A DNA stretch of 64,000 bases, from IMG/VR virus record IMGVR_UViG_3300021431_000075, positions 32,001 to 96,000 of that record; one strand, written 5' to 3'. Positions within the stretch are counted from its first letter, which is position 1. Every line of letters begins with the position of its first letter. This document shows, piece after piece, positions 20,674 through 63,732 of the stretch. The translations under genes and the position numbers were made by a program. Below the pieces are notes generated by a model. It searched no databases and was not told the origin of the DNA. It was given only the letters and a program-made list of their open reading frames with translations. This DNA is from a virus (lineage: Duplodnaviria; Caudoviricetes).

Positions 20674-21954
20674 ATGAAAATCAACGAATCATTGTTCAAC
20701 AATGTAGATTCAGAAGAAATAGAAGACATCGAAGACGTATATTCGAACAACATAGACTCATATCCGATGATTCTATCAATGTTAATTCATAACGAATGGA
20801 ATGCCCAGAAAATGTCAATCGGAGACTTCTGTAGCAAAGTCATTTCAAAACTTGCAAATACGTTAGATGAAGTGCTTGATGACGACAGCAGCATTCTTGA
20901 TAGGTCTCCTCTGTTCTTTATGAACGACTGGTGCTATTCAGATTCAAAATATGAAAAACTGGCATCTGTCAAACCCCAGATGATGAACGGTTACTGCGCA
21001 TATGACTTCGGCAACAAAGACGGCAACTTCACTATCTCATGGTTCATATATCCGGCATTCCTGAGGTACTTCCAAATCCGCAGATTCTTTAAAAACCTAA
21101 TCGAACCGGCAGAAAAGTTAATACAAGACATTGACAACACTCTCTCTATATTCACTGTTCAAATTCTCGACTTGACACATAATAAACGAGGTTTTGTTTT
21201 AGAAGATTACTTCCATGAGAAATATTCAATTTTCCATGACACTAAAGGAATCGCTATGGCATATGCGATGCTGTTGCCAAAGTACAATGCGAACTCATTG
21301 ATTCATACGATTCTGACAGAAAAAGCAAACACGATTATAAAAGAAAGAAAACATGTAGAAGATATCATAAAAAATAATGAATTGCCGGCACAGTTCAACA
21401 AAAGAAAAATAAAGTTAATTGAAATTTCTGGTCCAAATGGCGAAGGTGCCATGCTTAACATGATTAAACAATCAGGAGAACTCATATCTAAAATATGGGC
21501 AAACAGCATCATAACATATGACTATGTTGTAGAACTATGCCTGTTCGGGAGCGGCATATACAACAACAAGTTTGAGACTCTAAACAATCAGCCAGTACGA
21601 TTGAACATGGTCAATATATGCGGAGAACTTGTTTTTGAGAAATGGATAGACAGAATCAAAGACATTGAAAGCGAATACGGCAAATTATTCATCGTGGAAA
21701 AAAACAGAGAGAGGAATTTCCTGAACCAATACGGCGTAATCATCGGAGAAGAATGGAAAAGCACACTCGGCGGTGAATGGCACAAACTGTCTTATAATGA
21801 TGGTTACACATACTATATAGATCCGATTGAACGCATTAATGCAAAAATATATCGAGAATACCCGGATGGAAAACTTGAACTGGCTCCTGAAATAGCAAAG
21901 GCGTTGAATGAAATAAAACCGGAGAAAAAGAAAAAGCCATCAAGAAGAAAATGA
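20674..21954 (+). CDS. Leader-family protein without WG repeats
   Basis: Starts MKINESLFNNVDSEEIED, the same leader as the array genes. AATAAATA at 20633-20640. Confidence 0.8.
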   Translation: MKINESLFNNVDSEEIEDIEDVYSNNIDSYPMILSMLIHNEWNAQKMSIGDFCSKVISKLANTLDEVLDDDSSILDRSPLFFMNDWCYSDSKYEKLASVKPQMMNGYCAYDFGNKDGNFTISWFIYPAFLRYFQIRRFFKNLIEPAEKLIQDIDNTLSIFTVQILDLTHNKRGFVLEDYFHEKYSIFHDTKGIAMAYAMLLPKYNANSLIHTILTEKANTIIKERKHVEDIIKNNELPAQFNKRKIKLIEISGPNGEGAMLNMIKQSGELISKIWANSIITYDYVVELCLFGSGIYNNKFETLNNQPVRLNMVNICGELVFEKWIDRIKDIESEYGKLFIVEKNRERNFLNQYGVIIGEEWKSTLGGEWHKLSYNDGYTYYIDPIERINAKIYREYPDGKLELAPEIAKALNEIKPEKKKKPSRRK

Positions 21955-23261
21955 AACATATCATCTACCAAAAAAACAAGTTCAATGCATTGAACGAGAA
22001 TTTAATGGGAGAATTAGAAGCGGAAGAAGTAACTGACGATTCTGACAAACTGGTCATAAATCCAGAAAACTACGACTTCTACGTCAGAATCACTATGCTT
22101 ATTGCGATTCCGGTTCTGATAATACGGTCGAAAGAACGTTATCTTGCAGCGATTAAGAAACTGAATGAAATAATAGACGAATCGACAGCGATATACGACC
22201 ACAGCACCGTTTGTAGTTTCTATGACGATATGGAGAATGCAGAGATGATGATAGTTCCTGTACATAATCAAGATGTTCCGAAGGACAAAATGATGAACAA
22301 TGGCATCCATTTTGCAATCTCAACAAACCATATCAGCAGACGAGAACTTTGGAAGCTTCTCCAAAATATAACAAAATGTCTATTCGAAATGGTTTCAAAC
22401 GACATGGAATCATTTGATGCGTTTTTCTCACGACTGTGCATTAACAAAAATCTCGGAAATGGTCAATTCGAAACAAACAGCAGCAATTCAGTCGATTTGT
22501 TACATTTCTTTCCGACATTCTTATCTCTATTGAACAAAGAAAAAGAAAAGGAAGCGGAACACGAGACGCTGATTAGTCATTTAACGAAACTATTCAATCT
22601 GTTCATTCCAGAACAAGAAATAAAGAACTATATATACATCATCGAGCAAAGTGGAATTGATGACATATTGCATTACTGCATCAATGGATTAGATGCTATA
22701 CAAGACAGCAGTAGCATTACAGATCCGTTAAACATAAAAAGAAAATTCCTTCAGGCATTCTATTTCAAAAGCAAGACTATCAATTTGCCAGACAAAGACA
22801 AAGAAACATTTATCGGCAAACCGTTCATTTTCTATTCAGCATTATCAAGCAATAACACATATGTTCTATTGAGTCCTATAACATCATTCGGCTTCATAAA
22901 TCCTTGTTTCCCAAAATCAACAACAACACAAAATGTTCTAAAGTCATTAACAAAGAGCCAGACGAAACTAAAAAGGATATTCGCAAGCAGCTGCTGCCTG
23001 ATGACAAAAGACTTGTCTAAAGGAAACAACGTAGAAGAATGCGTTGAAACTTTTCTTGCATTATATCTCGACTTTGGTTTCGTGAAAGTGAACTATATGA
23101 TACAAAGATGCATCGTCATGTTCCTGATTAGCTCGAATATAGACAAAAGAGATGAAAGCATAGCAGAACTACACAAGCTCATACCAGAACTGAACCCGAC
23201 GATTGCAAATGACTATCTAAATTTAGCGTTGAAAATGTCAACCAAACTAATTTATCAATAA
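21951..23261 (+). CDS. Leader-family protein without WG repeats
   Basis: ALNENLMGELEAEEVTD leader. ATGA overlap with the upstream paralogue. Confidence 0.8.
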   Translation: MKHIIYQKNKFNALNENLMGELEAEEVTDDSDKLVINPENYDFYVRITMLIAIPVLIIRSKERYLAAIKKLNEIIDESTAIYDHSTVCSFYDDMENAEMMIVPVHNQDVPKDKMMNNGIHFAISTNHISRRELWKLLQNITKCLFEMVSNDMESFDAFFSRLCINKNLGNGQFETNSSNSVDLLHFFPTFLSLLNKEKEKEAEHETLISHLTKLFNLFIPEQEIKNYIYIIEQSGIDDILHYCINGLDAIQDSSSITDPLNIKRKFLQAFYFKSKTINLPDKDKETFIGKPFIFYSALSSNNTYVLLSPITSFGFINPCFPKSTTTQNVLKSLTKSQTKLKRIFASSCCLMTKDLSKGNNVEECVETFLALYLDFGFVKVNYMIQRCIVMFLISSNIDKRDESIAELHKLIPELNPTIANDYLNLALKMSTKLIYQ

Positions 23262-24535: not shown

Positions 24536-24536
24536 A

Positions 24537-24572: not shown

Positions 24573-25823
24573 TTATTTGAAACCGAATTTTGAAAGACAT
24601 CTGGTTATAGTTGCATCATCAGCATATTTGCTTTCGCTGTTGCATATCTGGTCAACCATATCCTGTTTCTGTTCCTGAGTGACATTCAAGTTATTCTTGA
24701 CAAAACTCAGCATCCTTGTTATAGATTCTTCTGTGTGTTCATAGTCAATGACACAAACGATAGCAACATATTCCTTTATATCATTAAAAACAGTTCCACG
24801 AAGATACAGATAAAGCACATTCGTGTCTTTTGGAAAAACATCATAAACATCTCTGCTTAATTGAACAGCCTTGACAAGAACATTGTTATTTCTTATCCTG
24901 TTCATCGTCCTGTCGCACAAATCCTGCATAACATCAACATCGACTCCTGTATTTTTCCTCAAAACAGCAAGTTCCAGTCGCTGATTCTCGTTGTTATATG
25001 ACGCATCAAATGCGACTTTATGAACAGGCTCCACAAACAGCACCCTGTCAAAATTACAATTCGGCTTCATGCGGACATCCGTCAGCATGTGTTTTTCATT
25101 AATATAAACCGAGTGGTTTTCTCCGCAAAATTGATGATAATAACCTTTATATGTATAACTCCGAACAAGATATTGTCCCAAACCTCCTGTACCGAAATAA
25201 GTGAACAGCCTATATGCTTTTGAAGTCAAATATCTGGACTTTGCATTTCTATAATCATAATCAAAACTAAACCCGGTATATGTCGCACTCGAATCTCGGT
25301 TAACATTACCAACAATACCAAACCCGTCTATATCAAGTTTTGTACCGTATATTTTTTTCAAACTGTGAATATTTTTTTCCAAATCGTCAAAGAACCGGAC
25401 AACCTCTTCATATCTCATATGACACTTCAATCTAACATAGAAATAAAAAACTTGCGTTGAAGGTTTTTCAAGTTGTTCTAAAGTGGCATAAGAGTGATAT
25501 ACAATACCCCCCAATTCCAACTTGTTATACTTATCTTTTGATTCTATATCCGTATCAACAGTCAGAACTATCTTTGAATACTCATATATGCTGAATTTAC
25601 TATCGAGCAAGGAACATAAGCATCTTGCAGCATACTCGACCTTGTAATTAAGGTCGTCTATGCTGTCATGTGAAATGGAAATATGGACTGACAATATAGC
25701 ATCATAGTCGTCATCATGCGGAAAGTCATCTACAAACAATCCGTCATTCGCATTATCATCAACAACTTCTTCAACATCAACAGAAGAAAGCATATCCTCG
25801 TTTATCGTCAACAACTTACTCAT
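24573..25823 (-). CDS. Array member: leader-family protein without WG repeats
   Basis: TINEDMLSSVDVEEVVD leader, then YDAILSVHIS-type first strand. Confidence 0.8.
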   Translation of the reverse strand: MSKLLTINEDMLSSVDVEEVVDDNANDGLFVDDFPHDDDYDAILSVHISISHDSIDDLNYKVEYAARCLCSLLDSKFSIYEYSKIVLTVDTDIESKDKYNKLELGGIVYHSYATLEQLEKPSTQVFYFYVRLKCHMRYEEVVRFFDDLEKNIHSLKKIYGTKLDIDGFGIVGNVNRDSSATYTGFSFDYDYRNAKSRYLTSKAYRLFTYFGTGGLGQYLVRSYTYKGYYHQFCGENHSVYINEKHMLTDVRMKPNCNFDRVLFVEPVHKVAFDASYNNENQRLELAVLRKNTGVDVDVMQDLCDRTMNRIRNNNVLVKAVQLSRDVYDVFPKDTNVLYLYLRGTVFNDIKEYVAIVCVIDYEHTEESITRMLSFVKNNLNVTQEQKQDMVDQICNSESKYADDATITRCLSKFGFK

Positions 25824-27067
25824 TTGTTATCATTGCTCAATTTTCTATATAGTTCTCCTCTAAAGCCCGGTTCTTTTGCATAAATCGAAGAAATGACAAA
25901 ATCAACAAAATTACGCTTTATCTCATCATTGTTTTCAGAAAGCATGAACGGCTTTACGAATCTTGCAACTTCATCAACCCTGGCGTCACAGCTCAATTCA
26001 ACAGCAACAATGTAGAAAACCTCACAACCATCATCCATCAACGTGTTCGGAATCAAATATGCAACAGCGATAGAGTCTTCAAGAGAAACATCAAAAACAA
26101 ATGAAAAGAAAACAGGCTGCCTGTATGTTCTGATAACTTTACCAAGACGTTCTCTGATTGCATTTTTGTCAGATATTTCTTCTTGAGACTTTAAATATCT
26201 AACATCCAGTTCAGTACATGCGACTTTATCATTCATCACAATTGATTCAAGAACATCCTTAGTTAATGAATGATAACCGAAAGGCTTTCTTGATTGTTTA
26301 TGCTGCAGCATGTCAAGCGGTCTTGACAAACACCAGAACGGGCACATATTCATAAAGGACTCTATAACTGGAAACTTGCCGCCGTTATTCTCTGCAAAAA
26401 TCTTCAGCAATGAAGGAAATATCTGCTCGTTCTCCGGGATGAGCATCCGAATCGTGTCGTACAATTCTACATTATATCTGTCAAGTTCAATAAACTTGGT
26501 GAATTTTGTTCGATGAGTATCATGATCCACTTTAATGATCTTGAATTTTATTGCCTCAAGATTTCCACCAAACAGCCCTGTGTACAATCCAAACTTCTGC
26601 AAGAACCTGTATACTTCCCTGGGATTCATAAAGTTCGAATTGAATCCGACATTCATCATAGATTCAAAACGCCAGTTCATTCTCGCCCAGTTCAAATCTT
26701 TATCCAGTTCATTTGGTTTTCCATTCAATGCATTGTCAAGATATTCTTCAGACGGGACACACTCTTCAATCAGCATCGGAGAAATGATAGCGCAGGAATA
26801 GTCGTCAATCGCCATCGTGCTTCCGAATATCCGTTCTGTTGCGTTATTAAGAATCTTGCGACCGGTAGAAGTGTCAAGAATATCAAACAAACTCTCATAT
26901 ATATTTCCGTTAAATGTACGATTTCCGTTCTTATTCTTCCAATGCAAAAGAATACAAAAGACATAATCATAAGAATCATAAAAACTCTTATAACCATTGT
27001 CGCTATCAGAAACATCTTCAACTTCGACCTCTCCGAACAGATTTTCATTCAATATACCTGTATGCAT
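25820..27067 (-). CDS. Array member: leader-family protein without WG repeats
   Basis: ILNENLFGEVEVEDVSD leader, then YDYVFCILLH first strand. Confidence 0.8.
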   Translation of the reverse strand: MHTGILNENLFGEVEVEDVSDSDNGYKSFYDSYDYVFCILLHWKNKNGNRTFNGNIYESLFDILDTSTGRKILNNATERIFGSTMAIDDYSCAIISPMLIEECVPSEEYLDNALNGKPNELDKDLNWARMNWRFESMMNVGFNSNFMNPREVYRFLQKFGLYTGLFGGNLEAIKFKIIKVDHDTHRTKFTKFIELDRYNVELYDTIRMLIPENEQIFPSLLKIFAENNGGKFPVIESFMNMCPFWCLSRPLDMLQHKQSRKPFGYHSLTKDVLESIVMNDKVACTELDVRYLKSQEEISDKNAIRERLGKVIRTYRQPVFFSFVFDVSLEDSIAVAYLIPNTLMDDGCEVFYIVAVELSCDARVDEVARFVKPFMLSENNDEIKRNFVDFVISSIYAKEPGFRGELYRKLSNDNK

Positions 27068-28530
27068 TTGTAATACAAAAGATCGTCTATTTTTTTATTA
27101 TTTTTACACCAGCCGTACACAAAGTTTCCATGACGATCAAGAACATCATACTCTTCTTTATCATTGTAAACAACGAAAAAGTCATTCCTATCGTGCCGTT
27201 TACAATCTTCATTGAACCAGACAGAATTGAACCAGACGTCACTCAAATAGCCATTCTCCATATTGAAGATTCTCGCTTTCCTATTCTTCTCAACCATCAC
27301 AAACATGCCATCTGGAGTTGATGGAACGTCTTCTTCCACTCGGTCAAACCACTCGTCAGAAACAACTTTGCCATCGATTCCAATATAATTCCATCTCTTA
27401 TTGCCATTGATTATTTTTAGAACCAATACATAACTTGTATGAAAACCCAGATCGTAAACATCGTTTTGACTTATCAAATCAAACCAATCTTTCGATAGAA
27501 GTTTGAACGACTTGGTAATAATGTTATATGCCGGCTGCTTTTCTCTCTTTATGAGTGCAAAGTCTCCTATAAACGCTGTTGCTTCTTCAAATGCAACTCT
27601 AACAATAGGCTTTCCATCCACATCAATATAGACATATTTGCCATCAGTCGGTCTCCTAACGACAGCAATGCCGTCATAGAATCCGCTTGCTTTCAAAAAC
27701 CAGATATTCGGAAGCATCACAGATTTATCCTTGACATAATTAAAATAACCACCAAAATAAACAACATCTCTTTTTTTGGCATTATCTTTTATATAATCAA
27801 AACCGAGGGCATTCTTGGTCTTGGCATCTTGAACGGCAAGTCTCGCATTCATCTCCATCGTCAATAGATGAAACCACTCATTCATCCCAAAGTCTCTTCC
27901 AGTAACAGCTTCATAGAATCCCTGCAAGTTGATTTCAGGAATAGCTTCAGTCTTAATCAAAAAGAGCGTATTGTTGCTGTACATCTTATTGAACTCGTCA
28001 CGACTCAAGTCATATTCAGAGAATGCGGTCATATAATTGACCTGAAATGAGAAGTTTTTTCCAAACGTGTTAAAAATCTTCCATACGAAACTGACCGCGC
28101 TCCTGATACTTACTTGTTCTCGTTTTATTCCAAAGACAGCCAGCAACTCCCGACTTCCAATATATTGTCTGACGGAATCGCCAAAATTTGTATATATTTT
28201 CACTCCGGAAACTTCAAACTGACGAAACGTTTCAAGCATTCGAACAACATTATTCACATAAGGCGAAAAATTAGAAGATTCCAATAAACCGAAAAACTTG
28301 TATTCATAAAAACTCGTAGTCATATCAACAATATTAACAAGGTCGGTAAATTCTCTGGAACCAATGATTCTCTCATAAAAATCAAATCTTTCCTCTGAAC
28401 CTTTTGCAGAACAATCAATATGGACACACAGAATGAAATCATAATTTCTGACATCATTCTCGTCAATGCCAGAATCATCCAGAACGTCATCAAGCTCAAT
28501 TTCAGTCAACAGACTGTTTTGCTCTTTCAT
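27049..28530 (-). CDS. Array member: leader + N-domain + short WG-like repeat tract
   Basis: Start reassigned to ATG 28530 (MKEQNSLLTEIELDDV), behind GATAAATA at 28557-28564. Repeats such as WNYIGIDGKVVSDEWFD. Confidence 0.8.
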   Translation of the reverse strand: MKEQNSLLTEIELDDVLDDSGIDENDVRNYDFILCVHIDCSAKGSEERFDFYERIIGSREFTDLVNIVDMTTSFYEYKFFGLLESSNFSPYVNNVVRMLETFRQFEVSGVKIYTNFGDSVRQYIGSRELLAVFGIKREQVSIRSAVSFVWKIFNTFGKNFSFQVNYMTAFSEYDLSRDEFNKMYSNNTLFLIKTEAIPEINLQGFYEAVTGRDFGMNEWFHLLTMEMNARLAVQDAKTKNALGFDYIKDNAKKRDVVYFGGYFNYVKDKSVMLPNIWFLKASGFYDGIAVVRRPTDGKYVYIDVDGKPIVRVAFEEATAFIGDFALIKREKQPAYNIITKSFKLLSKDWFDLISQNDVYDLGFHTSYVLVLKIINGNKRWNYIGIDGKVVSDEWFDRVEEDVPSTPDGMFVMVEKNRKARIFNMENGYLSDVWFNSVWFNEDCKRHDRNDFFVVYNDKEEYDVLDRHGNFVYGWCKNNKKIDDLLYYKCIQVY

Positions 28531-28601
28531 TAAAAACGAAAAAACCAAGATTTTTGTATTTATCTTAATTAAGCGTTTTTTTAGCAAATCACAAACAATC
28601 A

Positions 28602-32680: not shown

Positions 32681-32704
32681 AAATCAATGCAAATAATCGA
32701 ATTT

Positions 32705-34465: not shown

Positions 34466-34534
34466 GTAATTTGTTTATTTATTTCCAGAAACAAAAATCA
34501 TGCCTTCGTCACAAGTCTAAAAACCAAACAAAAA

Positions 34535-36688: not shown

Positions 36689-36705
36689 AAACTCAAAAAC
36701 AAATT

Positions 36706-51588: not shown

Positions 51589-51676
51589 TATGACTCCTTT
51601 ATATTATAAGATATTTATTTGTTTTAAGCAAAAAATGCGAAAACACATACCAATCATAAAGAAAATGTCCATCTTA

Positions 51677-52348: not shown

Positions 52349-52356
52349 CCGAAGAA

Positions 52357-54009: not shown

Positions 54010-54024
54010 CAGTTTGTCAAATTC

Positions 54025-54630
54025 TTATCCATTTGTTGTTCCTTGCTTTCTCTTCGAGTACATCTTTCCGCTGAACGACGCTATCAGCATCATCATGTCG
54101 ATCACGAGTTCTTCTTGCTCTGCATGTTCCTTGCTGTCAAGCAGCTCTATCTCTACGCCACAGTTGTTGAAGAAATACTCTATGAGATTGTAATGAAACC
54201 TTGTCAGCCGATCCTTGTGCTCTATGACAACCTTGTCTATCTTTCCGCTCGTCACAAGACTACAAAGCTGCACGAAGCCCTTGCGCTTGTCGTTCAAGCC
54301 GCTTCCTATGTCCTTTATCGAATATTCTACCTTGTACTTCTTCTTGATGCAATGCTCGAACAGCCTTGCAGACTGCCTGTCTATGTCGCCGCGCGTCTTC
54401 TGACCAGAAGCCGAGCATCTTGCATATGTAGCGACAACTACGCAGTCGCTTGACTTATGCTCTACATCATTACTTCCGACAAGGCTCTCTATTTCAGACT
54501 GCCTGTAGCGTCTGTGACCGCCGTCTGTCCGGACAGCGGTCAGACGGCCCTCGCGGTCCCACCTGTGCAATGTTGACTTGCTCACGTTAAGCAGTCGCAT
54601 CGTCTCTCTCAATGTCAGTAGCCTGTCCAT
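54025..54630 (-). CDS. tnpA: IS607-family serine recombinase TnpA
   Basis: LNVSKSTLHRWD...RTDGGHRRY (MerR-like HTH), TYARCS, DIGSGLND, EHKDRLTRF, ELVIDM...FSGKMY. Confidence 0.95.
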   Translation of the reverse strand: MDRLLTLRETMRLLNVSKSTLHRWDREGRLTAVRTDGGHRRYRQSEIESLVGSNDVEHKSSDCVVVATYARCSASGQKTRGDIDRQSARLFEHCIKKKYKVEYSIKDIGSGLNDKRKGFVQLCSLVTSGKIDKVVIEHKDRLTRFHYNLIEYFFNNCGVEIELLDSKEHAEQEELVIDMMMLIASFSGKMYSKRKQGTTNG

Positions 54631-54814
54631 ATATGTTGTTCAGTTTTTCAACAATAGCATACGTAATCTGCATTGCAGTGTTGACATGCTCTTGGATTTC
54701 ATCAGGCTCCATTCTCTCAAGACCCTCAAGCAGCGGAAATTCGGTTCCGTCTTCGCATATGAAAATTCCATTAGCAACATCAACAGAAAGAACGCTTATT
54801 TTATTCTGATGCAT
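54587..54814 (-). CDS. Small acidic accessory ORF inside IS607 element 2, overlapping the tnpA start
   Basis: 75 aa (IFICEDGTEFPL...EIQEH). First ORF behind GATAAATA at 54833-54840. Confidence 0.65.
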   Translation of the reverse strand: MHQNKISVLSVDVANGIFICEDGTEFPLLEGLERMEPDEIQEHVNTAMQITYAIVEKLNNIYGQATDIERDDATA

Positions 54815-54942
54815 AGAATTATCATCTTTTATTATTTATCATCATAAATATGAATGAATATTATTGATTGCTTATCAATATCTAATTTGACGCTGTTGAT
54901 AATCCATTTCGGAAGAACTTCCATCAAATGCAAATCTTGTTT

Positions 54943-57111
54943 TTAAATAATGGAAATAAGATTTCCCTTGTTATCAACATAGTTGTCAGCACCGACTCTA
55001 AATACTCCATCTTTGACATATTCAATCACACTGTCAGACCAGTCATCGAACAAAGTCGTCCCGTCAGGAAAAATAATGTTATATTTCTTCTTATAATATG
55101 CAACCTTGAAATAGTCGTCGTAACTATCTATATGAAGCTCGTCAGTTCTCAACCAGTTTTTAAACAAGAACTTACCATTGGAAGAATTCAGGAAATTGTT
55201 TATCATCATGCCATTGACTCTATTCTCAACAACATAAACATTTCCACAACAACCATTTATGTTCATAAACCAATCTTTTGAAACAAGCGTTCCATCAGAA
55301 CGCACAACGTTCCAGAGACCGGATGAGTTTTTTATTCTCGCACAATCATTCTCAAAATCACCAACAATGTATATATCATGCCAATAACCCTTGTCTTTCG
55401 TACTCAATATGTTTCCATTCTTGTCAACTATCTCTTTAAAGTTATTAATGATGACAACTGCACAACCGTTATAAAAATCCGACACAATGCTGTCAATCTG
55501 TATATCGAATAGCAAATTTCCATCACGACTGATAAAATTCGGACTCCCATCCCATCGATTTCGAATACGTGCAAAACCATCACAAAATTCAATAGGCGGG
55601 TTATCCTTATCAAAATATCTTACTTCAACATCCAACCCAAACCATTGATTTGTAATCAATTTTCCGGTAGTGTCAATAAAGTTATATTTCGACATGCCAT
55701 CTTTTGACACAACCAGCGCATTGCCGCCGGAATCAAAATTATAACATTCCCCAAAACCATCCGGTTTCCCGTTCTTGTCAACACACAATACATTTCCGCT
55801 TTCATCAACATAGTTCCATCCAGAAGAATAATACACCCTTGCATACCCGTTGCAAAAATCTCTACACCTACCAACCCATCTATCCAAAAGCAGTTTTCCA
55901 TCCTTTGTATAAAAGTTCCATGCGCCATTGTTGACAACTCTCCACACACCTTCGATTTCGGTTTGTTCAAAAGCATTATCAAAAACATCTTCTGGATACA
56001 AAATCCTGCATTTCTCGTCAACCAAAACAAATCCTTCCTTATCACCAGCGAATTCATCATCAGCATTGCAATAAACCCATCCGAAACCATTTCTGATAGA
56101 CTTGTATGACTTGATTCCTATATTTCCGAACATATCCTTTCCGTCTGCATCCAGAATATGAAAATAACCGCCTTTGTCCTTTACATAATAATATCCGCCC
56201 CGTCTAAAGTCAAGAACACCAAATCCATCTGACAAAATACGACCATGATTATCTATCAAGAATTGTTGATTCTCACTCTTTGGACGAACCACAGCTCTTT
56301 CATTCTCATCAAAAGATGTTCCATATGAATAATATTCTTCTGACAAAAGTTTTCCGCTTCTGTCTATATAATTAACTCCGCCACCATCTGAACTCAAACG
56401 CTGCACCTTCAGCATTCCAGACGAATATGTATTTATATCATTCAAATGAGAATTATCTCTTATAGAGAACAAATCATAACCTCTGGAATCAACAATATGC
56501 ATCATCTCACAATCATCATCCAATCTAACATATATCCTGTATATGTCATCCGAATCGCTTACCCTACATATCAAACCATATGCATTGCCAAGCCGAACAA
56601 CAGTTCTCATTACACTTATTCCCTCACATTCCGGAAACATCTCCTTAAGAGTTAATAAGTTTTTGAATCTCAAAGTCGCATGATTCTTTGTCGATACCCA
56701 GTCAACAGTCAGCCCCATATTTCCATAGTATTCAACATCATCACACTTATTGACAGACACTTCAAAATTATCCAACGAATTGCAATTTCCCTCACAGTAC
56801 AAACAGTACAACATAATCTTGACGACAAATTCTGCTGTAACACACTCTCTCCTGAACTTACAATCTATGATATATTTCCTGATACCACCGGTTGTATCTT
56901 TCTTGTATTCCATAGCAATGTTTCTTTCAATGAGATTATCAAAAAACGCATTGACTTGAACAATAAACCTATCAACAATAAGAGTTCTGTCACAAAACAC
57001 AAAACTTACAGAAATTGCTTCTTTGTTATCATTATCATCAGAAACTTCATCTGTTTCCAATTCTCCAAGAAGCGACTCGTTCATAATGTATGCTGTATTC
57101 ATATTGCTCAT
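54943..57111 (-). CDS. Array member: WG-like beta-repeat protein
   Basis: YIMNESLLGELETDEVSD leader; repeats; ends LISII. Confidence 0.9.
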   Translation of the reverse strand: MSNMNTAYIMNESLLGELETDEVSDDNDNKEAISVSFVFCDRTLIVDRFIVQVNAFFDNLIERNIAMEYKKDTTGGIRKYIIDCKFRRECVTAEFVVKIMLYCLYCEGNCNSLDNFEVSVNKCDDVEYYGNMGLTVDWVSTKNHATLRFKNLLTLKEMFPECEGISVMRTVVRLGNAYGLICRVSDSDDIYRIYVRLDDDCEMMHIVDSRGYDLFSIRDNSHLNDINTYSSGMLKVQRLSSDGGGVNYIDRSGKLLSEEYYSYGTSFDENERAVVRPKSENQQFLIDNHGRILSDGFGVLDFRRGGYYYVKDKGGYFHILDADGKDMFGNIGIKSYKSIRNGFGWVYCNADDEFAGDKEGFVLVDEKCRILYPEDVFDNAFEQTEIEGVWRVVNNGAWNFYTKDGKLLLDRWVGRCRDFCNGYARVYYSSGWNYVDESGNVLCVDKNGKPDGFGECYNFDSGGNALVVSKDGMSKYNFIDTTGKLITNQWFGLDVEVRYFDKDNPPIEFCDGFARIRNRWDGSPNFISRDGNLLFDIQIDSIVSDFYNGCAVVIINNFKEIVDKNGNILSTKDKGYWHDIYIVGDFENDCARIKNSSGLWNVVRSDGTLVSKDWFMNINGCCGNVYVVENRVNGMMINNFLNSSNGKFLFKNWLRTDELHIDSYDDYFKVAYYKKKYNIIFPDGTTLFDDWSDSVIEYVKDGVFRVGADNYVDNKGNLISII

Positions 57112-57127
57112 TGTTTAAAAACCCATT

Positions 57128-59350
57128 TTAAATAAAACTCAACACATTTCCACGTCTGTCAATATAAACACGACCAGTATTGATTTGAAACACACCGTCA
57201 ATATTCGTATCATCTATCTCATCACTACTCATCTTGTCATATAGCAGCGTTCCGTCCGGCTTAATCATATTGTATAGATCATTTGACTTATTATAGATAA
57301 TGACGACATCATCATATGTATGAAAATCGTACTTGTAATCGTCAAGCCATTCATCGAACAATAGATCTCCTGAAGTATTCATAAAATTATACTCCATAGT
57401 TTTTGACTTTGACTGATGTCTACCAACCATACAGACGCTTCCACAAAACTCGTCAACTTCATAGTACCAGTCTTTCGAGACAAAACTTCCATCGGGTCTT
57501 ATGAAGTTAGAATGTCCTTTCTTGTTGACAACCAAAGCGTAACCGTTCTTGAACGGTTCTATCGAAGTTATCATACACTTCTTCTTGATTACAAGTTTAC
57601 CGTTCTTGTCAATAAGATTCTTGCTCCCGTTTCCATCTATAACAACCGCATAACCACTTTCATCAAAATCATAAACCTGCTCGAACCACACATCCGACAA
57701 GACGTTACCTTCAACATCTATATAATTGCCAAAAATCCCACCATCCTTATATTTATATACTCTAACAAATCCTGCACAAAACGGTGTTTTAGAATATACC
57801 ATCCCGTAACCATTAACATAAAAATTCTCTTTTAATATAGACTTTCCTTTCTTGTTGATAAAATCAACATATCTGTCCTCTCTATAAACCATTGCGATTC
57901 CGCATTCATGAAAATCACTACATGAATTAAACCAGACAGGCTTTCCGTTGCTTTGCTTGCAAATGAATTTTCCATTCGTATCAACATAAGTCATCTGGTA
58001 ACACTTGTTCTTATAATCATATTTAGTGACAATAGCACAACCGTTACAAAAAGAATCACAGTCTTCATACCAATCATTCAACAGCAATCGACCTGTCATA
58101 TCAACAAAGTTTGTCTTCTTTCCGCTTACGTTTTTATCATCAATCAATGAAACTATCCAGAAACCTTCTGAACCAGAATCGCTAATCCAATCATACATAT
58201 TGTTCTGAAACAGCAAATGTCCGTTCTTGTCTATGATGCCGTTTCCATTCTTGTCTTGCACTATTGCGCAACCAGAATCATCATCAAGAAAATCACCACA
58301 CTTGGTAAACAACTTATTCGACAACAATCTACCTCTTGCATCAATATAGTTATATTTCTCACCCATACGAACAACAGCATAACCGTTCACAAAATTCTTA
58401 ATCTCAGAAAATTTTCGGTTTGTTATCACTTTACCGCTTGTATCTATCAACGCATAATAATCACTTGTGCTGCCATCTGGTTCTTCACTTTCGATAATGT
58501 TAACTTCAGCAACGCCATAGCTGTCTATAAAATTGCCACAAAATCCACTATAGAAATCTTCTAATATGAAATTTCCGTCCGTATCTATATAATTGTAATT
58601 GAAATCCTTCCTGTTTCCAATTCCGACATCCTTATGGACTAACATCCTGCCGCAATGGTACACAGTATCGAAACATGCATATATATCATCATACTCAAAT
58701 ACAACATCCCCATTCTTTCTGGCTATCATGTACATAAGTTCATCACTTGTTGTTCTTGTAAAGATAAACTTATATAGTTCATTTCCAGTCTCTTTGTTCA
58801 CACAGAACAAAATACCCAACGGCAATGCAACTTTCATGATGCTTTGAATGATACTCTTCTTGCTACAATCCGGAAACAAGATATGGTAAGAATCTATATT
58901 TTTTATACAAAGATAACACTCTGATTTGCGTTCTGCGATGCAGAAAGTCAACCCATTCTGTTCTGTAAAATCAATATCACCAAAGGAACTGACTACAATC
59001 GAAAAATCAAACCTGACTTTTTTAAAACATGTGACATATAGAAGCTTTATAAGAAAGTTGTTAAAAGTGTCGATATTGACATCGGCATCATCAAACAATA
59101 TAGAAAAGTCAAGTCTTTCAGGATTTTTCTTATATTCAAAATTCTGGATAGAACCATACTTGACCTTCGTATTCAGATACTGTTTGATACTATCAACAGT
59201 ATTATACATGAAATAACTGCCTTGAATTGACAAATTGATAACAAACTTTCTATCATCATTATCATACACAACATCTTTCACATCATCCGCTTCCACTTTA
59301 TCAAGAAGCGTCTCGTTCAGAATATATGTTGAATGCATACAGTTCATCAT
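57128..59350 (-). CDS. Array member: WG-like beta-repeat protein
   Basis: YILNETLLDKVEADDVKD leader; repeats; ends VLSFI. Confidence 0.9.
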   Translation of the reverse strand: MMNCMHSTYILNETLLDKVEADDVKDVVYDNDDRKFVINLSIQGSYFMYNTVDSIKQYLNTKVKYGSIQNFEYKKNPERLDFSILFDDADVNIDTFNNFLIKLLYVTCFKKVRFDFSIVVSSFGDIDFTEQNGLTFCIAERKSECYLCIKNIDSYHILFPDCSKKSIIQSIMKVALPLGILFCVNKETGNELYKFIFTRTTSDELMYMIARKNGDVVFEYDDIYACFDTVYHCGRMLVHKDVGIGNRKDFNYNYIDTDGNFILEDFYSGFCGNFIDSYGVAEVNIIESEEPDGSTSDYYALIDTSGKVITNRKFSEIKNFVNGYAVVRMGEKYNYIDARGRLLSNKLFTKCGDFLDDDSGCAIVQDKNGNGIIDKNGHLLFQNNMYDWISDSGSEGFWIVSLIDDKNVSGKKTNFVDMTGRLLLNDWYEDCDSFCNGCAIVTKYDYKNKCYQMTYVDTNGKFICKQSNGKPVWFNSCSDFHECGIAMVYREDRYVDFINKKGKSILKENFYVNGYGMVYSKTPFCAGFVRVYKYKDGGIFGNYIDVEGNVLSDVWFEQVYDFDESGYAVVIDGNGSKNLIDKNGKLVIKKKCMITSIEPFKNGYALVVNKKGHSNFIRPDGSFVSKDWYYEVDEFCGSVCMVGRHQSKSKTMEYNFMNTSGDLLFDEWLDDYKYDFHTYDDVVIIYNKSNDLYNMIKPDGTLLYDKMSSDEIDDTNIDGVFQINTGRVYIDRRGNVLSFI

Positions 59351-59363
59351 AATAGCGTCATTT

Positions 59364-61523
59364 TTAAATATAGTTCACAAGCGTCCCGGTCTTATCTACC
59401 ATAACACCATAACCTATTTCGAATAGGTCTTTATCCTTAATATAATTGATTTTATACGGTCTCCACGATTCACTCAACAACTTTCCGTCAGCAGTAATCA
59501 AATTATATCCATTACCTTTCTTTATGATATGGCAATCACCATATATCGTAATGTTGTTTGCATAATCGGACTCCAGCCATTCTTTCAGAATCAGATTTCC
59601 GTTCCTGTCGATAAAGTTAGTAATTTCATCTTTTTTGCGGTTCACTGCAAGAGTTACTTCACAAGCACCACCATAGAATCCACCGACTCTATAGAACCAA
59701 GTCTTGCTGATGCTCTTTCCGTCAATGCCTATATAGTTGAACTCTCCCTTGGCATTCTTCACACAAGCAAGACCATTAACAAACTTGCTTTCAATCTGAA
59801 CTTTCTTTCTGAATAAGATTTTACCAGAAGTGTCCACGCAACATGACTTTCCATCAATCTTGATAACGGCATAACCGCCACTAAAAACACATTCTATATC
59901 ATCACACCACTCATCCATCAAAAAAGTTCCATCTTTTCTGAAAAAATTATGCTTCATGGCATTCCCGTATTTTTTACAAACAGGAGCCAACCCGTCATTG
60001 AATGAAGAACTTCCGTCCAAGTTCACTCCCCAATAACGTTCAAAATGCACAGGAGATATGTATTTTCCGTTCGTGTCTATGAAATTCTCACAGTCGCCGC
60101 TAAAATCACTTATAATTACCTTTGCTATTCCATCTTCATCAAAGAAACTGCAGTTCTTGAACCAAACAGGACGACCATTTCTTTCACATACATAATTTCC
60201 GGCCTTGTCTATGAATGTCATCTCTCGTTGATTCTCAATTAATCCGTACCCATTTAAAAAACCACGGCACTTATCTACCCACTCGTCATTACCCGGCAGA
60301 TATGTTCCATCTTTTGTTATATAAGTCTCTTGTGTTGGAAGGCCTCCGTTGCTTTCATTTCTTCTCAGAATAAACACATCCTCGGACACACTGATGATTT
60401 TAACATCAGATTCTTCTGTATGAAACAATATATTTCCGCTTGTGTCTATAATACCTCTTCCATCATCATCAACAATAATTGCATAACCAGATTCAAAATG
60501 AATTGCCTTTGAAAACCATTTGTTCGGAGACAACACTTTTCCATATATGTCAATATAGTTATATTCTCCATCATAATTCTCAACGACAAAATAACCATCA
60601 TGGCTGAAACTATCAATATACTGATATCTATCTTCTGTGATGATTTCTCCTTTCGTGTTCATCAAACCCATAGATAGATCGTTAAATGTCACGACTGTAA
60701 CTTGCTCATAATATGAAAAATCTAAAGCACTACTAAAAAACTCATTAGATATGTAGTTTCCATTTATATCTATAAAGTTCCATCCCTTATTCTCTTGGGA
60801 ATATACTTTCAACAGACCGCAATTAAAAACATTGTTTGTCAATCCGCTTTCTCCCAATCTAACACGTTCTTTATATATTACTTTACCGTCTTTGTTAACA
60901 ACCAACCGTTCCCCCCATTTTACCAGATTTTTGTCTCTTTCATAATATACACAGAAACGATATACCTTATTTCGGGGTTCCAGACAATCACATAAACCGT
61001 ATTTGGACATAATGGTTCCGATACTAAAATAGACATCATTCATCGAAATATCCGGAAACAATTCTGCATATATGTTCAGATTCATCAACAAGACTCTGGT
61101 TGCATAGAATGAACATTCAACCGACAGAGCATCATCATTATATACTCTATCATCTATTTCTGTAACTCTCATTCTAAAAACCAATCCACAACTATCGAAT
61201 ACAACAGCAAGCGTCTTGAACATGATAGAGTTAAACAAATCAATATCAACCCTGTCGTTATATAGAAAGATAACTATGTCAATCCCCGCACCATTCCTAA
61301 ATCTTGAGTAATTTAGATTTATATTATAGCGCTCTATATATTTTCCTTCAACAAATGAATCAAATATATTATTTAGGACACTGAGAATTTCATCCTTCTT
61401 GGAATCGCCGACATTTAATGACAAAACAATCTTAAAACTGCCGTTCTTCTCATGAACTTCATCAACGTCAACTTCATCAAGAAGCGTCTCGTTCAACATG
61501 TATATCTTGTTTCTTTTCATCAT
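59364..61523 (-). CDS. Array member: WG-like beta-repeat protein
   Basis: YMLNETLLDEVDVDEVHE leader; repeats; ends LVNYI. Confidence 0.9.
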   Translation of the reverse strand: MMKRNKIYMLNETLLDEVDVDEVHEKNGSFKIVLSLNVGDSKKDEILSVLNNIFDSFVEGKYIERYNINLNYSRFRNGAGIDIVIFLYNDRVDIDLFNSIMFKTLAVVFDSCGLVFRMRVTEIDDRVYNDDALSVECSFYATRVLLMNLNIYAELFPDISMNDVYFSIGTIMSKYGLCDCLEPRNKVYRFCVYYERDKNLVKWGERLVVNKDGKVIYKERVRLGESGLTNNVFNCGLLKVYSQENKGWNFIDINGNYISNEFFSSALDFSYYEQVTVVTFNDLSMGLMNTKGEIITEDRYQYIDSFSHDGYFVVENYDGEYNYIDIYGKVLSPNKWFSKAIHFESGYAIIVDDDGRGIIDTSGNILFHTEESDVKIISVSEDVFILRRNESNGGLPTQETYITKDGTYLPGNDEWVDKCRGFLNGYGLIENQREMTFIDKAGNYVCERNGRPVWFKNCSFFDEDGIAKVIISDFSGDCENFIDTNGKYISPVHFERYWGVNLDGSSSFNDGLAPVCKKYGNAMKHNFFRKDGTFLMDEWCDDIECVFSGGYAVIKIDGKSCCVDTSGKILFRKKVQIESKFVNGLACVKNAKGEFNYIGIDGKSISKTWFYRVGGFYGGACEVTLAVNRKKDEITNFIDRNGNLILKEWLESDYANNITIYGDCHIIKKGNGYNLITADGKLLSESWRPYKINYIKDKDLFEIGYGVMVDKTGTLVNYI

Positions 61524-61536
61524 TCATTACTTCATT

Positions 61537-63732
61537 TTAGACAAAAGACAAGAGATTTCCAGTCCCATCGACATAAAAAACATTGTCTATTCGATAAACA
61601 AAACTATCGCCGTTTTCAACAGGAACAATCTTTATTCCACTCCACTCTCCATAAAAAAGAAGCTTTCCTTTGGATGTAATCATATTCCACTGCGGAGCGT
61701 TCTCGCTATCACACAAGATAATACTATCCACATAAGTGTTTATATTGAATCTTCCACTATTGAACCATCTTTTCCCAAGTATGAACTTTCCGTTCGTGTT
61801 ACAAAAACTATATTCTTTTGATTTGCCATTTTCATTATATTTGGATACTTCAAATACACTGATATTCTCAAATCTGGTTATCGTTTCATACCACTCTTTC
61901 AAAACAAGCGTTCCGTCTGTCCTGATGCAATTCCATTTTCCATCATAACTTTGAACCCGCGCGATTCCGTCTATAAAAACGTCAATCTTTGAATATTTCG
62001 AATAGTCAGAATGAACCATGACACCATACTTGTCTATAATGCCAAGATGATTGTCAATCTTCACTACAGCATATCCATTTTTAAAATTCGTTTCAACTCC
62101 ATCAAACCAGAATTTTGACAGAATCCTCCCTGTTCTGTCAATAAAATTGAATTTTGTTATAAGATCATTTTTCTTATCCGTCACAATAGCAAAGTCTTCA
62201 GAGAACTGCGACACAGACAAATCAATACCAACTCGCTTGTCAAACCACTTTCTTGAAATCAGATTTCCTGACTTATCTATGAAATTCATCTTGTTATTTC
62301 TAAGCACTATCGCGTTTCCGCCTTCATCAAAGCAACCACAATCAGTAAACCATTCCGGCGTACCGTCATCTTTCTCACACAGCACATCTCCTTTCATATC
62401 AATGAAAGTATATCCGAATTTTGAATTGCAAATCCACATCAGACCGTTATGAAAACTGTTTCCATACCCATAAAACCAGTACTTTGATAAATACTTTCCC
62501 TTCGTATTTACCAGATTGTTGCAATTCCCATCACTATGATTCTTATCCCTCACAATCCATAATCCATTGCCTACTCTTGATATGGCGTTAAACTTCTCTG
62601 ACTGAAATAGAATCTTCCCTTTATTGTTACAAACACCTATTCCGTTACTGTTTGAAATAATTCCATACCCATCATCATCAAAATCTTCACAACTAAAATT
62701 GTTCCCAGTAAGCAACTCGTTGCCAGTTGCATCTATATAATTATAACCACCATCCTCATACTCAACTACAGCAAATCCGTTCGAATATTGATTTATAACC
62801 TTATAGTTATTATCAGCAATAAGATTTCCTTTTCCATCAACCAATCCAACACTATTATCTTCAAAGAGCCGGACGATAACTCCATTGGCTGTAAAACCCA
62901 CAATATCCTTAAAAGACTTGTTGACAAACTTTCCATCCCGGTTCATAAGATAGTATTCGTTCTTTTGGAAAGAATATACGGCAAGCAAACCGTTATGAAA
63001 CAAATCAAATTTGTCAGCGATCATCAAGGACTTCACCTGAAACTCATATATGATTTCTCCATTCTTTCTAAGAATCAATCTTCTAATATTAGCTTCATCA
63101 TAATATACGATATACTCACCATCATGCTCTCTTACAATATAAAGATGATATATGTCATATTCTCTGTCTATACACCTTGTCAATCCATATTTCGCAGATG
63201 CCTTGACAATACTTGAAAGATACTCCGTTTCCGATATGTTTGGAAACATATTCTTATACTCATTCGTATTGACAATCAGAATTGCTTCTTTTGAATTAGT
63301 ATTATCAATGTATAACTTTTTTACAAAAGTATCATCATCTATGAACTTTTCAACACTCAAGCCAAATGTGAAGTATTCTTTCATTATAGCAATGATACAG
63401 AACAAGACTTCATTAAACAACTGCACATCAAGATATGATTTGTCAATCCACAAATGAATATTCGCATTTATAAGGTCCAATTTCTCAATATCGTACTTAT
63501 GAACAATATCGCGCTTTTTTAAAAAATCAAAGTAACTTTTGATTCTTTCTTCGACTGCATATGGAAACGCCCGTCGTCCATCCATGTCAATACGCATCAT
63601 AATGTAAACACAATCATCCTCGTTGAAGTAATCGTCGCTATCTTCAACCTCATCAGAGTCAACCTTACTCAACAAGTTCTCATGGAGTGCATCATCAACT
63701 TCGTGCCAGTATGTTTCAATATCTTCATTCAT
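61537..63732 (-). CDS. Array member (first gene): WG-like beta-repeat protein
   Basis: ALHENLLSKVDSDEVED leader; repeats; ends LLSFV. Confidence 0.9.
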   Translation of the reverse strand: MNEDIETYWHEVDDALHENLLSKVDSDEVEDSDDYFNEDDCVYIMMRIDMDGRRAFPYAVEERIKSYFDFLKKRDIVHKYDIEKLDLINANIHLWIDKSYLDVQLFNEVLFCIIAIMKEYFTFGLSVEKFIDDDTFVKKLYIDNTNSKEAILIVNTNEYKNMFPNISETEYLSSIVKASAKYGLTRCIDREYDIYHLYIVREHDGEYIVYYDEANIRRLILRKNGEIIYEFQVKSLMIADKFDLFHNGLLAVYSFQKNEYYLMNRDGKFVNKSFKDIVGFTANGVIVRLFEDNSVGLVDGKGNLIADNNYKVINQYSNGFAVVEYEDGGYNYIDATGNELLTGNNFSCEDFDDDGYGIISNSNGIGVCNNKGKILFQSEKFNAISRVGNGLWIVRDKNHSDGNCNNLVNTKGKYLSKYWFYGYGNSFHNGLMWICNSKFGYTFIDMKGDVLCEKDDGTPEWFTDCGCFDEGGNAIVLRNNKMNFIDKSGNLISRKWFDKRVGIDLSVSQFSEDFAIVTDKKNDLITKFNFIDRTGRILSKFWFDGVETNFKNGYAVVKIDNHLGIIDKYGVMVHSDYSKYSKIDVFIDGIARVQSYDGKWNCIRTDGTLVLKEWYETITRFENISVFEVSKYNENGKSKEYSFCNTNGKFILGKRWFNSGRFNINTYVDSIILCDSENAPQWNMITSKGKLLFYGEWSGIKIVPVENGDSFVYRIDNVFYVDGTGNLLSFV

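Follow-up and report, generated by a model that had tools for sequence, protein, structure and literature searches.

Some 50 very different repeat proteins, encoded across the 673-kb genome of a relative of the Lak gut megaphages, begin with one common short acidic N-terminal leader. As this leader contains a motif that the phage's own T4-like head protease seems to cut, these proteins are probably loaded into the virus head. The fuller reading, in which the leader would be a portable address and processing tag that brings its bearers into the prohead, is trimmed after a Glu residue, and leaves them as head cargo delivered with the DNA, seems to us about evenly balanced between right and wrong.

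Leader genes and their promoter-like sites

The window analysed here is a stretch of 64,000 nucleotides (positions 32,001 to 96,000 of virus record IMGVR_UViG_3300021431_000075). Using ORFs and a family HMM, an array of 17 leader genes with products of 415-784 aa was delineated on the minus strand (24573..63732); two IS607-like elements break it up, and a hairpin terminator at 24537-24567 closes it. Two more leader genes (20674-21954 and 21951-23261) were found as ORFs on the plus strand (20674..23261). A preliminary description had reported the leader motif in 19 proteins, plus a degenerate version in the gene starting at 28530. The pattern itself holds, but six-frame translation gives 18 exact matches in the window, not 19, alongside the degenerate copy.

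On the minus strand, exact matches lie at 63640..63687 (LHENLLSKVDSDEVED, gene 61537-63732), 61449..61496 (LNETLLDEVDVDEVHE, gene 59364-61523), 59273..59320 (LNETLLDKVEADDVKD, gene 57128-59350, the member that was folded), 57037..57084 (MNESLLGELETDEVSD, gene 54943-57111), 51511..51558 (MNESLLDKVESDEVVD, gene 49507-51588), 49418..49465 (INESLLDNVDAEEVRD, gene 47429-49510), 47353..47400 (LNESLLDEVGSDEVKD, gene 45391-47436), 42709..42756 (LQENVLAKIDADEVSD, gene 40705-42825), 40609..40656 (LNESLLDEVKPDEVRD, gene 38644-40680), 38554..38601 (LNEDLLGKVETDDVVD, gene 36706-38631), 36617..36664 (LNEDLLSDVEQDEVED, gene 34535-36688), 34373..34420 (VYENILDSVELEEVDD, gene 32705-34465), 32612..32659 (LNENLLGDVDADEVED, gene 30326-32680) and 30246..30293 (LSEELFDNLYADEVND, gene 28602-30326), and also in two genes whose bodies lack WG repeats, at 27005..27052 (LNENLFGEVEVEDVSD, gene 25820-27067) and 25758..25805 (INEDMLSSVDVEEVVD, gene 24573-25823). 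The degenerate leader, MKEQNSLLTEIELDDVLDD, occupies 28474..28530 of the same strand (gene 27049-28530). The plus-strand matches are at 20680..20727 (INESLFNNVDSEEIED, gene 20674-21954, preceded by MK only) and 21990..22037 (LNENLMGELEAEEVTD, gene 21951-23261, with no WG repeats detectable in its body). Outside 20674-63732, a WG-repeat protein on the plus strand (14085..14846) bears the basic leader RALYESIMKDVAKVIKRRLNE instead of an acidic one.

The motif is strictly N-terminal. Each of the 18 window matches lies 7-26 residues past the preceding stop and heads an ORF of 415-784 aa, while residue-shuffled frames gave 0.0 exact matches on average (200 shuffles). A scan of the whole genome, as the preliminary description had proposed, yielded 42 matches to a looser pattern, always 8-129 residues past a stop and before a frame of 376-775 aa, with the sole exception of one that heads a 76-aa fragment. 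Written as DNA, the leader pattern has 44 matches in the genome and 0 in a reversed control. An exhaustive search across 1.84 billion representative proteins gave 33 significant matches, every one of which starts at residues 1-18, and LNE is the tripeptide most enriched at the N-termini of the phage proteome (p = 2e-12).

The six promoter-like sites of the preliminary description are all present, five of them as exact (A/G)ATAAATA. On the minus strand, AATAAATA heads the sub-operon running from gene 61537-63732 through 54943-57111 (63782..63789) and that from 49507-51588 through 45391-47436 (51612..51619), and it also precedes gene 32705-34465 (34476..34483); GATAAATA stands 26 nt before the ATG at 28530 (28557..28564). 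The degenerate site CTAAAATAT (42842..42850, minus strand) has a flank, TCTTATAATAT, that is the same at 51612 and nearly the same at 63782. On the plus strand, AATAAATA precedes gene 20674 (20633..20640), in the loop of a 9-bp hairpin after the PhoH gene. Genome-wide, 148 of 192 [AG]ATAAATA occurrences are intergenic; intergenic DNA amounts to just 9.6% of the sequence, and for similar control words the intergenic share is 16-67%. The motif peaks 20-40 nt ahead of start codons. We see that (A/G)ATAAATA is a real intergenic signal, found also upstream of the portal, protease and terminase genes, and the leader genes may be expressed late. Two observations speak against such a late-gene reading: a search for a homologue of the late sigma factor gp55 found none, and there is no (A/G)ATAAATA within 140 nt of the capsid gene.

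Leader make-up and protein-level selection

The leader consists of three pieces. A variable start of 1 to ~25 residues, often basic and with a Tyr 3-4 residues before the Glu, is followed by an [LIVM]-N-E tripeptide, the putative target of the prohead protease (gp21 family) that the phage encodes, and then by a 13-residue acidic amphipathic helix (S-L-L-D-x-V-E-x-D-E-V-x-D), which an acidic linker joins to the folded body. The piece ahead of the putative cut can be as short as 1-2 residues (MKINE|S; MLNE|S in P0146).

As every gene has the conserved segment at its 5' end, and gene conversion is likely in tandem arrays, one could think of a nucleotide-level element, either a translation-initiation or regulatory RNA or a recombination homology patch between paralogs. 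This was tested by codon usage, which argues against it. Third codon positions in the leader are nearly free (0.8-1.9 bits of entropy) despite fixed amino acids, Ser is written with both AGY and TCN codons (AGC, AGT, TCG, TCC) and Leu with CTT, CTG and TTG, and leader genes have no conserved DNA ahead of their start codons. A nucleotide-level element is thus extremely improbable, and selection on the leader acts at the protein level.

The leader had been described as the best-conserved segment outside the repeats, and comparison of pairs between sister lineages bears this out, with leaders 65% and bodies 34% identical. In one sister lineage the bodies are only 26-39% identical, yet the helix positions hardly vary. 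In an AlphaFold model of the product of gene 57128-59350, residues 1-33 have pLDDT <50 and include one short helix (13-18); by this prediction, the leader is a flexible extension separate from the body. The WG-repeat proteins of the phage have an extra alpha/beta domain after the acidic leader. The tag is modular, in that the acidic leader heads 46 WG-repeat bodies as well as five or more bodies without detectable similarity to those, and the basic leader, whose last residues are LNE, likewise precedes WG bodies. The helix is kept and [LIVM]-N-E is lacking in the 28530 gene and in four paralogs located outside the window (18948, 20652, 24072 and 25690). Because paralogs without the cut motif retain it, the helix has a role independent of cleavage; to call it a docking tag is conjecture.

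A gp21-family protease and its putative cut motif

The preliminary description had proposed looking for a gp21-like protease in the full genome, and a Peptidase_S77 gene was indeed found (624491-626329, 612 aa). It reaches 31.6 bits on PF03420 (cut-off 27) and 21.9 bits, below cut-off, on the phiKZ-type S80 model. Its segments GELDHP and VSSRACG align with segments of T4 gp21 that we take to hold the catalytic His and Ser. Homologues lie directly upstream of or adjoining the capsid gene in PTm1, LR756504 and LR756500.

The protease chain contains six internal [LIVM]-N-E sites, four of them followed by Ser; of 604 proteins, none has a higher density (Poisson p = 7e-5, barely surviving correction for 604 proteins at ~0.04). 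Three of these sites are kept at aligned positions in the 47% identical proteases of Lak-A1 and Lak-B1, which also carry an additional N-terminal LNE; in all three phages such sites recur at conserved places around the catalytic domain, and the protease-scaffold protein of PTm1 has nine. The capsid protein, 71-72% identical between this phage and Lak-A1 and Lak-B1, has KLNE|DAF ~57 residues from its start, closing a variable N-terminal stretch. This site is kept in 12 of 13 aligned relatives, with VNE in the thirteenth, and LNE lies within the first 110 residues of 115 of 120 capsid proteins. Because of the conserved sites in the protease chain and KLNE|DAF in the capsid protein, a cut motif can be deduced without recourse to the leader; it is likely [LIVM]-N-E, mostly followed by Ser. 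The acidic leader has this same motif, and from this match we infer cleavage at its Glu bond.

A different enzyme might be responsible. The phage encodes a 219-aa Peptidase_C1 protein (30.9 bits, cut-off 20.7), whose gene lies immediately downstream of the portal gene with its own (A/G)ATAAATA motif. Papain-family enzymes favour a hydrophobic P2 residue, and such a cysteine protease would cut L-N|E, with Leu at P2. We judge this very unlikely, since the motif clusters in the chain of the S77 protein at domain borders, as expected for self-processing, and since proteases of the gp21 and gp175 families are documented to cut after Glu (PMC5694885).

Proposed packaging, its alternatives and known systems

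In the mechanism that we favour, leader genes would be expressed from (A/G)ATAAATA promoters alongside those for the portal, protease and terminase. Their products would be taken into the prohead during its assembly and trimmed after the Glu by the gp21-family protease. They would then stay in the head as cargo and enter the cell with the DNA. The acidic helix would remain on the mature protein, which would explain why paralogs without a cut site keep it. In favour of this mechanism are also the modular, flexible nature of the leader, the promoter motif in common with head genes, and the signal peptides that bacterial WG-repeat homologues bear in the leader's place.

Several points weigh against packaging, those paralogs among them. 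What is conserved follows the presumed scissile bond and, because the removed piece can be only M or MK, T4-style targeting by that piece is impossible here. We know of no precedent for packing ~50 different proteins of ~75 kDa. Lak-A1 and Lak-B1 have only 0-1 acidic leaders, and no WG repeats were found in them.

Some of these observations would suit a helix that acts as a handle of the mature proteins in the infected cell, docking each of them onto a common partner from phage or host, in the way of giant-virus repeat proteins that bear a short adaptor motif. The likeness to protease sites would then be incidental or secondary, and presence in the virion would not be required. Such a handle fits the conserved residues after the presumed cut, the free, flexible leader of the model, the near-invariance of the helix on diverged bodies, and the paralogs that keep LLDxVExDEVxD without [LIVM]-N-E, three of which have a host-type TAnnTTTG ≤32 nt before or overlapping the predicted start. 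However, N at P2 (34 of 45 leader copies) and a hydrophobic P3 are as strongly conserved as the helix and match the protease and capsid sites (the Glu is fixed by the search pattern), most leader copies are served only by the promoter type common to head genes, and the partner is still a hypothetical one. We regard the handle as possible but doubtful.

For packaging, the nearest comparison is with T4, whose capsid targeting sequences were reportedly the subject of work by Mullaney and Black in 1996. According to passages of PMC5694885 and PMC3012670, these sequences occur on IPI, IPII, IPIII, Alt and gp24 and are removed by gp21. They comprise the 10-20 residues before the cut and are discarded. 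The T4 internal proteins are very diverse, with only the targeting sequence conserved in common (PMC3012670). In both phages short N-terminal tags sit on otherwise unrelated, fast-evolving proteins from clustered, hypervariable genes, a hydrophobic-x-Glu site fits a protease that in either case belongs to Pfam family S77, and a capsid-protein site of the same kind ends an N-terminal stretch of ~57-65 residues; T4 gp24 even begins MAKINELLRES. The preliminary interpretation was right about a gp21-family protease, a matching cut motif and a real promoter motif, but its T4 analogy is inexact. Targeting information precedes the cut in T4, whereas here the conserved 13-residue acidic helix follows it and would stay on the protein; Asn is the middle residue here, at a position that varies in T4; and T4 packs a few small proteins, compared to ~50 cargo proteins of 45-90 kDa predicted from the genes of this phage.

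The giant phages phiKZ, 201phi2-1 and SPN3US, in which propeptides of head and ejection proteins are cut by gp175 or gp245 at (S/A/G)-x-E (PMC5694885), likewise have many internal head proteins, including paralog families, and a protease that processes its own C-terminus. Their propeptides differ in mostly exceeding 100 residues and in a small residue at P3, and the protease studied here scores better on S77 than on S80. The SPN3US paralogs gp53 and gp54 have identical N-termini on bodies diverged to 34% identity (PMC5694885), a similar arrangement of constant N-terminus and diverged body. By analogy, these two proteins and the diverse T4 internal proteins with their common targeting sequence may serve as precedents for packaging.

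Another parallel is this phage group's other leader, the basic (K/R)xLYESIMRDVAKVVKRRLNE. It has the core L-x-E-S-[IL]-[ML]-x-x-V in common with the acidic leader, is strictly N-terminal, has the same promoter motif upstream, and is also found on WG-repeat bodies. Its helix, in contrast, is basic, and since a second LNE closes it, all of the helix could be cleaved off in the manner of T4. Lak-B1 has 5 copies of this leader and Lak-A1 has 1, phages in which the acidic leader is absent or nearly so.

Finally, the leader could be an anchor that fixes the repeat proteins outside the virion, as head fibres or decoration with many alternative adhesins. The bodies model as long beta-repeat arrays, phage fibres usually combine a constant N-terminus with a variable C-terminal part that binds, and the cultured relative PTm1 reportedly bears head-fibre-like appendages. 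Against this, known fibre anchors are folded domains of at least ~100 residues and not ~16-residue peptides, the model shows no trimerisation or fibre features, and a protein outside the virion would have no contact with the internal prohead protease, making the motif match a coincidence. We consider an external anchor unlikely. It draws some support from bacterial WG-repeat homologues, which are secreted or lipoproteins, so that the fold usually meets extracellular ligands. These homologues (PF14903; Bacteroidota and other phyla) are 24-28% identical over 20-60% of the query, and begin with Sec or lipoprotein signal peptides, a place that the leader and the alpha/beta domain take in the phage proteins.

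Acidic leader and the proteins that carry it

Both the acidic leader, an N-terminal [LIVM]-N-E followed by the 13-residue acidic helix S-L-L-D-x-V-E-x-D-E-V-x-D, and the promoter-like octamer (A/G)ATAAATA are real features of this phage. The exact leader pattern of the preliminary description matches 18 times in the window and never in shuffled translations, each match lying 7–26 residues after a stop codon at the head of an ORF of 415–784 residues. That description had counted 19 leader proteins plus a degenerate version in gene 28530; the recurrence and the degenerate version stand, but the exact count is 18, and because the 28530 copy is degenerate we give the total as 18 + 1. A scan of the full genome for the motif, suggested there as a check, yields 42 protein-level matches, all 8–129 residues past a stop, and 44 matches to the DNA pattern versus 0 in a reversed control. 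The family profile gathers 55 paralogs in the genome; these, and five further genes that have the leader but are of other kinds, occupy 102 kb (15% of the genome). The consensus of 45 copies is a weak (K/R)-x-Y-x, then [LIM]-N-E, then S/N/T-L-L-D-x-V-E/D-x-D-E-V-x-D. Third codon positions in the leader are nearly free, and its Ser codons are of the AGY as well as the TCN kind. It is the protein sequence that is conserved, and we reject a DNA or RNA element on this codon analysis.

The leader stands on 46 WG-type bodies and also on at least five bodies that neither BLAST nor HMM nor Pfam searches connect with these, those in the window being genes 21951, 24573 and 25820. The WG repeat model (WG_beta_rep, PF14903) scores 44–46 bits on two window members (cut-off 25.6) and matches 75 times in the genome, with no repeats in window genes 20674, 21951, 24573 and 25820. 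A weak HMM built on the body's first domain gave no link of the non-WG bodies to the family, and in the ESM Atlas 24573 and 21951 had weak, mixed leads only. Remote homology of this first domain is possible, the AlphaFold model of 21951 being too poor to use (pLDDT 36).

Bacterial WG-repeat homologues start with Sec or lipoprotein signal peptides, in the place that the acidic leader takes up in the phage proteins. About 15 small proteins, WG-repeat proteins among them, start with a second leader that is basic, (K/R)xLYESIMRDVAKVVKRRLNE; the two leaders have the common core L-x-E-S-[IL]-[ML]-x-x-V, and the basic one terminates in a further LNE. The WG-repeat protein at window 14085–14846 carries the basic leader (RALYESIMKDVAKVIKRRLNE), so that one body type is found behind both leader types. 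In the AlphaFold model of gene 57128–59350 (mean pLDDT 81.6), residues 1–33 are of low confidence, with a short helix only at 13–18, and are predicted to be free of the alpha/beta domain (36–180) and the long beta-repeat array. Fold searches with this 740-aa model gave generic beta-propeller or repeat matches only (TM ~0.2). The signal peptides of the bacterial homologues, the bodies with no link to the WG type, the basic leader and the free-standing N-terminus all suggest a sorting tag.

The virus record is 673,114 bp long with direct terminal repeats, and reads well in the standard code; the window covers its positions 32001–96000. Its major capsid protein, a match to Pfam Gp23, is 71–73% identical to the capsids of Prevotella Lak megaphages, with farther relatives in the ‘uncultured phage’ genomes LR756500-504 (462–735 kb) and in Tenacibaculum phage PTm1, which is in culture. 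Human and animal guts commonly contain Lak-type megaphages; we know of no cultured member and no phage–host pair. A search of phage records gave no close DNA relative, and for a member of the array family the sole match among them was a Clostridioides phage repeat protein.

Distribution of the acidic leader is narrow. Its DNA pattern occurs 44 times here versus 0–1 times in Lak-B1, Lak-A1, LR756500 and LR756504, and WG repeats, so abundant here, are absent from Lak-A1 and Lak-B1 and number five in LR756504. Neither the family alignment nor the leader profile of 22 columns had a match in five relatives by a fast search that may miss short profiles, a negative result repeated by two methods with positive controls, the DNA pattern and the repeat model from Pfam. 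The leader profile found 19 matches in 5.8 billion proteins, and 33, all starting at residues 1–18, came from an exhaustive search that took in 1.84 billion cluster representatives. Among the database matches is a sister phage lineage from metagenome clusters (proteins P0170–P0189) with a paralog set of its own, in which the bodies are 26–39% identical to the present ones and the leader is the near-invariant (I/L)YMLNESLLDDVEVDEVxD. The basic leader is present in five copies in Lak-B1 and one in Lak-A1.

Promoter-like motif and layout of the array

All six promoter-like sites in the preliminary description lie where it placed them, one being degenerate, and the array is organised as it said, in six groups, each headed by the motif and with its genes tightly spaced. 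Genome-wide, [AG]ATAAATA occurs 192 times, and 148 of these copies are intergenic although intergenic DNA is only 9.6% of the genome, with a peak 20–40 nt upstream of start codons. It lies upstream of the portal, protease and large terminase genes and of the window's head-tail adaptor-like gene, and not before the window's topoisomerase, PhoH, lysozyme and glycosyltransferase genes. The intergenic enrichment, start-codon spacing and head-gene company therefore point to a real phage promoter class common to head genes. Within 140 nt of the capsid gene there is no copy, but the two small genes just 5' of it have one. Set beside the T4-type late promoter (TATAAATA, read by gp55), the motif is intergenic and precedes head genes; a T4 gp55 query found no homologue. 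It is for this company and this likeness that the motif may be called ‘late’.

The minus-strand run of 17 leader-bearing genes in the array ends at a hairpin with a 14-bp stem (24537–24567). Two IS607-like elements (52357–54630 and 43076–45203) interrupt it between sub-operons. The first comprises a serine recombinase (MerR-HTH plus resolvase, 54025–54630) and a TnpB-like protein (52357–54009; Cas12f1-like TNB, OrfB_IS605), and the second a resolvase (44571–45203) and a 479-aa ORF without a Pfam match; no DNA similarity was found between the two copies. Both genes of the second copy have (A/G)ATAAATA shortly 5' of them, and the genes of the first are without it. Adjoining the first element is a leaderless 206-aa ORF of the WG family (51677–52297), which may be the remnant of a disrupted paralog; its flanks contain no leader-coding piece. 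Between the plus-strand leader genes (20674 and 21951) and the convergent terminator lies a 264-aa protein (23741–24535) with a weak endolysin-like match (PF25309, 16.5 bits, below cut-off) and nothing else. Just past the PhoH gene, a hairpin CCGGCTCTC...GAGAGCCGG (20619–20661) with a 9-bp stem is followed by a T-run, and its 14-nt loop contains the AATAAATA motif that precedes gene 20674, so a terminator-like hairpin and a promoter-like motif overlap here.

The prohead protease and its predicted cutting motif

The gp21-like protease that the preliminary description proposed to look for in the full genome is present outside the window, as a 612-residue protein on the minus strand (genome 624491–626329, L005:2492–4330). 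A six-frame scan with PF03420 missed it, and a T4 gp21 query picked it out. The protein scores 31.6 bits against Peptidase_S77 (PF03420; cut-off 27) and below cut-off against the phiKZ-type S80 model. Its segments GELDHP and VSSRACG align to GELNHP and VSSRGLG of T4 gp21, which we take to hold the catalytic His and Ser. A sequence search found no solved structure for it. Homologues occur in Lak-A1, Lak-B1, LR756500, LR756504 and PTm1, beside the capsid gene in the last three, and the PTm1 homologue is annotated as prohead scaffold and protease.

Six [LIVM]-N-E sites lie within the protease itself (VNES, LNES, VNES, INEL, MNEN and VNES), more densely than in any other of the 604 predicted proteins (Poisson p = 7e-5; ~0.04 corrected). 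In an alignment to the homologues of Lak-A1 and Lak-B1 (47% identity), [LIVM]-N-E is kept at two sites right after the catalytic domain and one near the C-terminus; near the N-terminus the Lak enzymes have LNE and this phage LLE. Self-processing is expected at such positions; phiKZ gp175 and SPN3US gp245 are reported to cleave their own C-termini (PMC5694885). The PTm1 protein has nine such sites. In the capsid protein, KLNE|DAF lies ~57 residues from the start, between variable and well conserved stretches, a position resembling the end of the 65-residue propeptide of T4 gp23. Of 13 aligned relatives, 12 have KLNE|DAF and the other has VNE; in 115 of 120, an LNE falls within the first 110 residues.

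From the protease and capsid sites, and so without using the leader, [LIVM]-N-E followed by Ser is a reasonable prediction of the specificity of the enzyme. The acidic leader carries exactly this motif, and its link to the gp21-type protease has good indirect support. A covariation test, on whether N-terminal leaders change along with the capsid site, covered the whole genomes of PTm1 and LR756504, where the capsid site reads INE, or IHE or [hydrophobic]-A-E. No expanded leader family of any kind was found in either; LR756504 has a weak excess of N-terminal [LIVM]-N-E, and PTm1 a few single cases.

The protease extends ~440 residues past its catalytic domain. The middle of this extension is highly charged and rich in D, K and E, and a unit E-K-D-x-K-R-S-K-I-L-G-[MI]-E-[AS]-I is repeated twice within it. 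The protein probably doubles as a scaffold.

Candidate head cargo and other readings of the leader

Like a T4-type capsid-targeting sequence, the acidic leader is located at the extreme N-terminus, has a hydrophobic-x-Glu prohead-protease site in a genome encoding a gp21-family protease, and is portable, standing on bodies with no BLAST or HMM link to the WG type. The likeness fails at the targeting residues. In T4 the address is the 10–20 residues ahead of the cut, which are then discarded (PMC5694885), whereas here the piece ahead of the site is variable, as short as M or MK, and the 13 conserved residues follow the Glu. There is no second site after the acidic helix; the acidic stretch, whose net charge averages −7.6 over 25 residues, enters the first body strand directly. 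For all of this, the helix-only copies described below included, the simplest reading is that the helix would belong to the mature protein and the tripeptide would be a trimming site. The preliminary description had the leader proteins made late, packaged in the head and cut by a gp21-like protease. We infer their encapsidation, cleavage, injection and timing, and regard their being capsid cargo as an evenly balanced proposition, with the protease motif and head-gene promoter class on one side and the T4 mismatch on the other. The main rivals of this reading are an external virion anchor, which seems doubtful, and the ‘handle’ function taken up next.

The helix is kept without [LIVM]-N-E in gene 28530, which has GATAAATA, and in four paralogs outside the window, three of which lack the phage motif and have a Bacteroidota-type TAnnTTTG that overlaps the predicted start or precedes it by at most 32 nt. 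A leader serving as a ‘handle’ after delivery or in the cytoplasm would suit such copies, and the exact match of most other copies to the predicted protease motif speaks for trimming in the prohead; we consider the handle alone unlikely. Slightly less probable is a tag with two jobs, in which [LIVM]-N-E would serve for prohead trimming and the retained acidic helix, once delivered, would be the shared handle by which the proteins grip a single hub. That hub might be a partner whose basic helix matches, for example the second leader. About 50 beta-repeat binders would then be injected, and the few untrimmed copies would be made early from host-type promoters. With the WG-repeat family absent from Lak-A1 and Lak-B1, the 102 kb of leader-bearing and related WG-family genes would explain most of the ~125 kb excess over those genomes.

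Returning to capsid cargo, the leader supplies a testable list of candidates, ~50 proteins with the acidic and ~15 with the basic leader, and predicts exact mature N-termini that can be searched for in existing metaproteomes. If the reading is true, this would be the largest known virion-delivered protein set in a phage; its targeting tag would differ in construction from the T4 one, keeping the conserved part; and the growth of the genome in this lineage would be explained in large part. If it is refuted, a lineage-specific expansion taking up that 15% of the genome, with a nearly invariant N-terminal peptide, still stands.

A papain-like cysteine protease (Peptidase_C1, 30.9 bits; genome 658475–659134, L006:3476–4135, plus strand, outside the window) could be a second maturation protease; its gene lies directly 3' of the portal gene with its own (A/G)ATAAATA, and four small basic-leader genes follow. 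In the window, a 438-aa protein of serial helical repeats (12467–13783), encoded behind (A/G)ATAAATA and with apolipoprotein-like and tape-measure-like matches, could be a scaffold or other internal protein. Hydrophobic-x-Glu tripeptides are abundant in it.
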